Shown here: in pieces, positions 20,620-20,671 of the stretch
Position numbering within the stretch: position 1 is the stretch's first letter
Layout: the number at the start of each line of letters is the position of its first letter
Origin: a virus
Virus genome (UHGV): UHGV-0200285
Strand: one strand, 5' to 3'
Length of the DNA stretch: 46,722 nucleotides
Program-made: the position numbers and the translations under genes
The notes under the pieces: model-generated
Database searches by the model: none
The model's input: the letters and a program-made list of their open reading frames with translations, nothing else
What the model was told of the DNA's origin: nothing

Positions 20620-20671
20620 TTGACACTGTCTATTCATACAGTTAAAAATAACACTGTATACAAACACAGTG
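20620..20671 (+). promoter_or_regulatory. promoter with two tandem LexA (SOS) boxes for the dinI-like gene
   Basis: TTGACA at 20620-20625; CTGT-N8-ACAG at 20626-20641 and 20654-20669. Confidence 0.6.

Follow-up and report, generated by a model that had tools for sequence, protein, structure and literature searches.

LexA-type operators at the promoter of a dinI-like gene in an attP-proximal cassette of a lambdoid phage

The window, that is, the whole stretch of 46,722 nucleotides (46.7 kb) analysed here from the virus genome UHGV-0200285, is the genome of a lambdoid phage in the excised (attP) form. Read from the right, it begins with terminase, head and tail genes (46.5–23 kb), after which come a DNA invertase gene, a dinI-like gene and attP, and the cassette to which the dinI-like gene belongs lies between attP and the tail-fibre region. 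To the left of attP come a tyrosine integrase gene (18938–20173, minus strand), an early/immunity/replication region, the Q gene and the lysis genes. The phage records 2H10 and cdtI are the nearest to the window, and int, attP and dinI are contiguous in both of them, as they are here. The integrase carries an N-terminal domain of the Arm-DNA-bind_3 (P4-type) family, and its gene is transcribed towards the leftward early genes, not together with them. A 646-aa ORF (16835–18775, plus strand) is found between an excisionase-like ORF (16354..16548) and the integrase gene; its sole match is the uncharacterised phrog_22932, and an accessory or defence role is possible for it.

In the right half of attP, the core lies inside a phage-borne, diverged copy of the ribosome-binding site and first 21 codons of prfC (20404–20485, minus strand, by comparison with K-12 prfC). 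The window has 15 TGTACA sites, eight of which are grouped on the two sides of the core, four at 20183–20239 and four at 20486–20600, and these repeats are probably integrase arm sites. In E. coli lysogens, for example 2013C-4282, position 20404 is where the homology to the window starts, and prfC directly abuts the dinI-like gene. Because the phage carries the ribosome-binding site and 21 codons, such lysogens are expected to make a hybrid RF3, with the 5′ end and the promoter of its gene coming from the phage. As for SOS control of this phage-supplied prfC 5′ end, the minus-strand promoter candidates are weak only (8/12 matches, 20521–20482) and lie more than 100 bp from the LexA boxes described below. 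Elsewhere, the dinI cassette adjoins unrelated integrases and att sites, such as yehV in VT1-Sakai and a different integrase in mEp460, which indicates that it moves independently of the integration module.

Table 1. Positions of the cassette elements and of other features discussed in the text (window coordinates; HI, heterology index).
Feature	Position	Strand	Basis and remarks
Third SOS box	7748–7767		CACTGTTCATAAATACAGTA; HI 7.26; in a 150-nt gap flanked by rusA (7813..8208, minus) and by a KilA-N-domain gene (6835..7662, minus)
LexA-like ORF, 108 aa	8205–8531	minus	LexA N-terminal domain; matches 1LEA residues 4–69, E = 1.6e-15
attP, right half	20404..20600	.	Core ~20404–20420, prfC copy and four TGTACA repeats; lysogen junction and K-12 prfC alignment
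-35 hexamer TTGACA of the dinI-like promoter	20620..20625	+	Consensus scan; conservation; promoter in mEp460 and VT1-Sakai GenBank records
Distal LexA (SOS) box 1	20624–20643 (20-mer); 20626–20641 (16-mer core)	.	20-mer CACTGTCTATTCATACAGTT; core CTGTCTATTCATACAG; HI 7.67
-10 region, TAAAAA (17-nt spacer) or AAAAAT (18-nt spacer)	20643..20649	+	Scan; GenBank annotations
Proximal LexA (SOS) box 2	20652–20671 (20-mer); 20654–20669 (16-mer core)	.	20-mer CACTGTATACAAACACAGTG; core CTGTATACAAACACAG; HI 9.86
Shine-Dalgarno AGAGGGA, 5 nt 5′ of ATG	20673..20679	+	Direct reading; purine-rich block kept in relatives
dinI-like gene, 82 aa	20685..20933	+	Pfam, PHROG and 1GHH alignment
Intrinsic terminator	21002..21040	+	RNA fold; imperfect 14-pair hairpin (21002–21035) followed by TTTTT

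Read on the plus strand, the region upstream of the gene consists of TTGACA (20620–20625), CTGTCTATTCATACAG, TTAAAAATAACA, CTGTATACAAACACAG, TGTAGAGGGATTTTT and the ATG at 20685. The initial annotation had proposed two tandem LexA boxes overlapping the promoter of a dinI-like gene, and direct reading bears out its coordinates, its 28-bp spacing (start to start, with a gap of 12 bp) and its -35 hexamer. TTGACA abuts the 16-mer of the first box and shares 2 nt with the 20-mer, and the pair stands directly 5′ of the start codon, as claimed, with box 2 ending 15 nt before it. A consensus scan calls the promoter as TTGACA-18-AAAAAT with 10/12 matches; the GenBank annotators of mEp460 and VT1-Sakai marked instead a 29-nt TTGACA-17-TAAAAA, whose TAAAAA, a poor -10 element, corresponds to 20643–20648 in the window. 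Box 1 fills the entire -35/-10 spacer of the predicted promoter, and box 2 is placed between the -10 region and the Shine-Dalgarno sequence, over the early leader and the transcription start predicted near 20655–20657. Behind the gene, RNA folding of 20934–21060 gives -31.9 kcal/mol (z = -3.08), and the terminator found there was missed by the consensus scan because its loop exceeds 8 nt. No plus-strand ORF longer than 32 aa is present between 20934 and 21360. With its own promoter, boxes, gene and terminator, and with no such ORF after them, the region forms a self-contained promoter-operator-gene-terminator cassette; it is a phage “moron” (an autonomous accessory cassette) at the attP-proximal end of a lambdoid phage, having a predicted promoter and a predicted terminator.

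Both boxes match exactly the CTGT-N8-ACAG core of the gammaproteobacterial LexA box, whose consensus 20-mer is TACTG(TA)5CAGTA. To grade them, a Lewis-type heterology-index (HI) matrix was used, which returns 4.31 for TACTGTATGAGCATACAGTA, a sequence that we take to be the recA operator. This matrix was recovered with zero residual from 140 sequence/HI pairs in Table S1 of PMC12527982, where the same value is given for that sequence. Scoring against a LexA matrix had been suggested in the initial annotation, and the resulting values, HI 7.67 for box 1 and 9.86 for box 2, are both within the LexA-binding range: the LexA-binding cluster, which reaches HI 13.6, classified 24/24 validated boxes correctly (PMC12527982), and the boxes of Salmonella SOS genes with measured induction span HI 1.5–14 (PMC8072944). 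A third site in the window, at 7748–7767, scores 7.26, and all of the remaining CTG-N10-CAG sites have HI of at least 16.2. When the lowest HI was taken from each of 300 Markov-shuffled windows, the 1st percentile of these minima was 9.77. Furthermore, the window contains five CTGT-N8-ACAG motifs where 0.53 would be expected, a count attained in 0/100 shuffles. Judged from the HI values, the shuffles and the range of the binding cluster, both boxes are real, non-random sites of ordinary, mid-range quality.

It could still be supposed that the palindromes arose by chance, or that they are RNA or DNA hairpins and not operators. Indeed, in the terminator scan, box 2 and the A-rich -10 region came up together as a hairpin with a T-run behind it on the minus strand (20672–20651). 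The shuffle statistics just given, for the motif count as well as for HI, and the conservation of the sites among 12 promoters (see below) argue against chance. As for hairpins, consistent pairing is found in the CTG/CAG triplets only, the other stem positions being unpaired in most sequences, and the hairpin covariation of the boxes (0.040) does not exceed the shuffle mean (0.051). Nor does any upstream minus-strand gene need to be terminated at 20672–20651. The terminator-like match at box 2 was discarded as an explanation because its covariation is not above that of the shuffles, and an origin of the palindromes by chance or as hairpins, whose probability we put close to nil, was rejected on the shuffles, the conservation and the absent covariation.

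Conservation was followed at two depths. Among near relatives, 80 IMG/VR loci encode a 98–100% identical protein, and the box count was restricted to the 62 whose upstream DNA extends over 60 nt or more: both boxes are kept in all of them (62/62), at -61 and -33 from the ATG. The boxes of the window are weaker than those of most relatives, with HI 7.67 against mostly 4.9–8.5 for box 1 and 9.86 against mostly 5.2–7.5 for box 2. For divergent loci, genome contigs were scanned with a profile, one genome per species, which gave 80 DinI-family loci from many enterobacterial genera. In this set of Enterobacterales, 74/80 have at least one box with HI <13.6 within 150 nt upstream, and the boxes nearly always start 33–41 nt 5′ of the ATG. 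Two boxes are present in 13 loci, all of which belong to a clade of 81–82 aa proteins with the “EISIAKEK..KMP” sequence (56–99% protein identity). For example, the Salmonella homologues (74% identity) show TTGACA, a box, TTAAACAT and a second box in the same order, with inner box bases that differ from those of the window.

An alignment of 12 promoters was made from divergent relatives in E. coli, Shigella, Salmonella, Erwinia, Mixta and Trabulsiella. Nearly all of its invariant columns fall in TTGA.A (5/6 columns of the -35 hexamer), in CTG and CAG of box 1, in CTG..A..CAGT of box 2 and in the start codon. The inner bases of box 1 vary across the 12 promoters while its CTG and CAG triplets stay fixed, and the A/T-rich block between the boxes is kept in all 12. 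The distance from box to box ranges from 24 to 29 bp in the relatives, so that helical phasing is not conserved and nothing speaks for cooperative, phase-locked binding. The same alignment contains no conserved columns upstream of the -35 hexamer. Likewise, the DNA 5′ of the hexamer belongs to several unrelated contexts in the near-identical IMG/VR loci, and in other contexts the upstream DNA diverges immediately 5′ of it, which marks an edge of the cassette. Of 5426 complete E. coli genomes, 1805 carry the cassette; a single genome can have as many as seven copies, and many of these matches start exactly at the -35. A boundary of the cassette exactly at the -35 hexamer is a small new detail. 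DinI-like genes are also found in 133 phage records, many of them Stx-converting.

Not every member of the group has an intact pair of boxes. In BP-4795 the distal box is degraded, with CAA in place of CAG, in VT1-Sakai it has an HI of 11.4, Klebsiella P18-100 has a single box, and four further clade members (L088, L090, L092 and L095) lack the distal one. The loss in BP-4795, the weak site in VT1-Sakai and the single box in P18-100 indicate that the second, distal operator is dispensable in some lineages. One may go further and suppose that only the proximal box works, the distal “box” being promoter spacer or a decaying relic. These degraded, weak and missing sites would agree with such a reading, as would the VT1-Sakai record, which marks the proximal site alone, and the single box of most DinI-family genes, including that of Gifsy-2 (HI 5.26). 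However, promoter spacers normally vary, and yet CTG and CAG of the distal site are invariant in 12 sequences from six genera in which the inner bases change; moreover, the distal box is the stronger one in the window (HI 7.67 vs 9.86). Function of the proximal box alone is therefore unlikely in our judgement. A second, distal operator that takes up the promoter spacer and has been retained in several genera is another small new detail of this promoter.

The product of the gene was described as “dinI-like” in the initial annotation, and it is a true member of the DinI family. It matches Pfam PF06183 DinI over profile positions 1–63 of 63 (1.2e-19, 70.8 bits against a cutoff of 24.2) and phrog_189, “RecA filament binding protein DinI” (4.4e-31), and its residues 1–81 align end to end with E. 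coli DinI (1GHH, 7.9e-13). The C-terminal acidic helix is kept as TWESADEWF, the counterpart of TWESADDWF in E. coli DinI, and W73, E74, A76, D77, W79 and F80 are invariant in the DinI-family alignment. In E. coli DinI the acidic C-terminal helix is the RecA-interacting surface, according to Voloshin 2001 as cited in PMC3121763. The biochemistry of DinI more generally (Yasuda 2001; Voloshin 2001; Lusetti 2004) is taken here as relayed in PMC3121763 and PMC8456039.

LexA boxes on a phage dinI gene are already known as a common, previously annotated cassette of a well-understood kind. The closest case is the Stx1 prophage VT1-Sakai (GenBank AP000400), whose DinI-like protein H0001 is 96% identical to that of the window; its gene is located at the prophage end next to att, behind a TTGACA-17-TAAAAA promoter and with the proximal LexA 20-mer at -33 from the ATG. 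In AP000400, a “LexA protein, putative SOS box” is annotated that is the exact homologue of box 2, along with a “putative promoter of H0001 and H0002” at the homologous position, and the mEp460 record has the same promoter. There are also differences. Only the proximal box is annotated in VT1-Sakai, the distal site being weaker than in the window; VT1-Sakai is integrated at yehV, while the phage of the window uses prfC; and co-transcription with H0002 was predicted by the VT1-Sakai annotators, whereas a terminator directly follows dinI in the window. The chromosomal dinI genes of E. coli and other Enterobacterales belong to the same family (49% identity for E. coli DinI) and have a LexA box about 33–41 nt before the ATG. 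They differ in having a single, usually stronger box (HI about 1–6), in encoding proteins of 79–83 aa that lack the “EK..KMP” insertion, and in not being part of a mobile cassette. More than one LexA box is also known from other SOS promoters, for example, two in Salmonella lexA and three in recN (PMC8072944 Table 1). Unlike in these promoters, one box of the window occupies the stretch from -35 to -10 and the other lies over the start site, at a distance that ranges over 24–29 bp in relatives, with no fixed phasing.

More distant systems combine a DinI homologue with an antirepressor. The dinI homologues of the Salmonella prophages Gifsy-1/2/3 are LexA-controlled, and mitomycin C leads to an accumulation of DinI (Lemire et al. 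2011, PMC3121763); with nalidixic acid, the induction of these homologues is 4.6- to 23-fold (PMC8072944). They are organized in dinI-antirepressor-irsA operons, in which the prophage dinI homologue stands directly behind a LexA box, as in the window, and the next gene, a small one, encodes an antirepressor on which induction depends, the prophage repressor being non-cleavable (PMC3121763). Non-polar deletions of the Gifsy dinI homologues left induction unchanged (PMC3121763). In coliphage 186, a LexA-repressed phage promoter drives Tum, an antirepressor fused to a DinI-like C-terminal half, as far as PMC3121763 describes it. By analogy, the dinI-like gene of the window might head a LexA-controlled antirepressor operon that triggers induction. 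Against this, the downstream interval is free of longer ORFs and contains the terminator (Table 1), and the protein is a bare DinI domain of 82 aa without an N-terminal extension, in contrast to the 146 aa of Tum with its antirepressor N-terminal half. The Gifsy genes are also distant paralogues, with 42.5% identity for Gifsy-2, and they carry one box and are placed among the early genes, away from the att end.

The repressor of the phage is a further point of difference from Gifsy. It is a CI of the SfV type whose C-terminal domain is S24/UmuD-like (phrog_4, phrog_811), that is, a repressor of the self-cleaving kind for which no antirepressor is needed. We give an antirepressor operon of the Gifsy or Tum type a very small probability, and it was rejected on the missing downstream ORF, the terminator after the gene and the S24 type of CI. 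The cI gene of the window (12380–13053) has 95% nucleotide identity to that of SfV, and contains a frameshift at 12515–12518, where four A's stand against five in SfV and the gene is divided into the ORFs 12380..12646 and 12532..13053. This frameshift may be a real mutation that makes the phage cI-null (clear-plaque), or else an error in sequencing the homopolymer; if it is real, the isolate may form no lysogens at all.

A second gene of the window also points to LexA. The 108-aa product of the ORF at 8205–8531 consists of a LexA DNA-binding domain and a tail of about 40 aa, and neither domain search nor structure-sequence comparison finds an S24 cleavage domain or a C-terminal dimerisation domain in it. 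The ORF belongs to the early rightward operon, where its ends share 4 nt with dam and with rusA, a layout from which the gene should be silent in a lysogen; the protein therefore cannot be the repressor that keeps dinI off in that state. From the initial annotation came the proposal that the dinI promoter is linked to this gene. The link is not supported, as the protein has the N-terminal domain only, is encoded in the early operon and occurs independently of dinI: SfV carries the LexA-like gene without dinI, the LexA-like gene is found in 61 phage records compared with the 133 for DinI-like genes, and at least 72 records have a DinI-like gene without a LexA-like one. The dam/lexA-like/rusA/kilA-N cassette is common to SfV, SfII, SfIV, cdtI, mEp460 and Stx2c phages. 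The literature search returned no publication on the function of the phage LexA-like protein.

Nevertheless, the two boxes might be read mainly by this uncleavable phage protein and not by host LexA. The alignment with the LexA DNA-binding domain (Table 1) fits such a role, and of the five E. coli LexA DNA-contact residues listed in PMC13416735, Ser39, Asn41, Ala42 and Glu45 are kept, the first three being invariant in phage homologues at 31–46% identity; moreover, the window and mEp460 carry both the LexA-like gene and a two-box dinI. But Glu44 is replaced by Val, positions 44 and 45 vary freely among the homologues, and the part of LexA required for dimerisation and cleavage is missing. The expected silence of the gene in the lysogen and its independent occurrence, as set out above, weigh in the same direction, and the operator layout is also found before chromosomal dinI genes throughout Enterobacterales. 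We regard the phage protein as a distinctly unlikely main reader of the boxes.

The phage carries exactly three good SOS boxes, the two of the dinI promoter and the one at 7748–7767 between rusA and the KilA-N-domain gene. No consensus promoter is found beside this third box. The 191-bp spacer that contains it is present in only five near-identical phage records (SfIV, PhiR49_1 and others), and mEp460 and SfV have a 20-bp gap in place of the rusA/KilA-N spacer. A more elaborate circuit can be drawn from these elements, in which host LexA would silence the dinI-like gene, and perhaps the KilA-N gene, in the lysogen, and the uncleavable product of 8205–8531 would re-occupy the SOS boxes after induction and, in the lytic phase, switch off dinI once more and possibly host SOS genes too; such a phage SOS sub-circuit is something of a long shot. 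Other LexA-like sites are found in relatives and are absent from the window. One is a very strong site, TACTGTTTTTACATACAGTA (HI 3.31), within the prophage repressor gene of mEp460, and another, with HI 6.84, is found right where a DNA methylase gene begins, behind Q, in mEp460 and SfV; these sites are at 31970 and 41021 in mEp460 and at 34170 in SfV.

Control by host LexA is the best reading of the dinI promoter, and for this clade we infer it from LexA-type operators placed on a sigma-70 promoter, a DinI-family gene and a conserved architecture. Of the interpretation first offered for this locus, the LexA-type operators on the sigma-70 promoter of the dinI-like gene stand, on the HI values, the order of elements and the conservation, and the connection to the LexA-like gene is unsupported. 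Very probably, host LexA represses the promoter through both operators, the repression is lifted when RecA stimulates the cleavage of LexA, and RecA filaments are then the target of the DinI-like protein. In the undamaged lysogen, LexA dimers would sit on box 1, where they would exclude RNA polymerase from the -35/-10 region, and on box 2 at the start site, and the gene would be off; that two operators make the control “tight” is plausible. Upon DNA damage, RecA filaments would form and stimulate self-cleavage of LexA, both operators would be cleared and the DinI-like protein would be made. By homology with E. coli DinI, this protein may bind RecA filaments through its acidic C-terminal helix and modulate their co-protease activity. 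Since LexA is cleaved faster than lambda-type CI repressors, the DinI-like protein would be expected to appear ahead of the inactivation of the S24-type CI, and it could then raise or tune the threshold of prophage induction. Any effect on the cleavage of the phage CI is hypothetical.

The phage would in this way tie a putative RecA-modulating gene directly to the same host SOS signal by which the phage itself is induced, as would many Stx-converting and other lambdoid prophages. The authors of a study on Stx2a phages speculated that phage DinI would limit induction (PMC8456039). If the DinI-like protein indeed dampens the co-protease activity of RecA, copy number of the cassette and operator strength could affect prophage and toxin induction by DNA-damaging antibiotics. 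In the searchable literature, including EHEC transcriptome and phage papers, no LexA-binding or expression data were found for the 82-aa clade of E. coli and Stx phages; what these sources offer is speculation or data on chromosomal dinI only.

A different arrangement is seen in some Salmonella enterica contigs (L164–L167, 2501–5236; L172–L173, 3001–5704), in which a dinI-like gene with 74–76% identity is followed by a gene for a bacteriocin of the cloacin/pyocin-S type. In L164–L167, the contigs in which the promoter was checked, the two-box promoter is as in the window and the dinI-like gene abuts prfC. Because the interval from dinI to the bacteriocin gene contains no additional SOS box in these four contigs, the dinI operators might serve the bacteriocin too.
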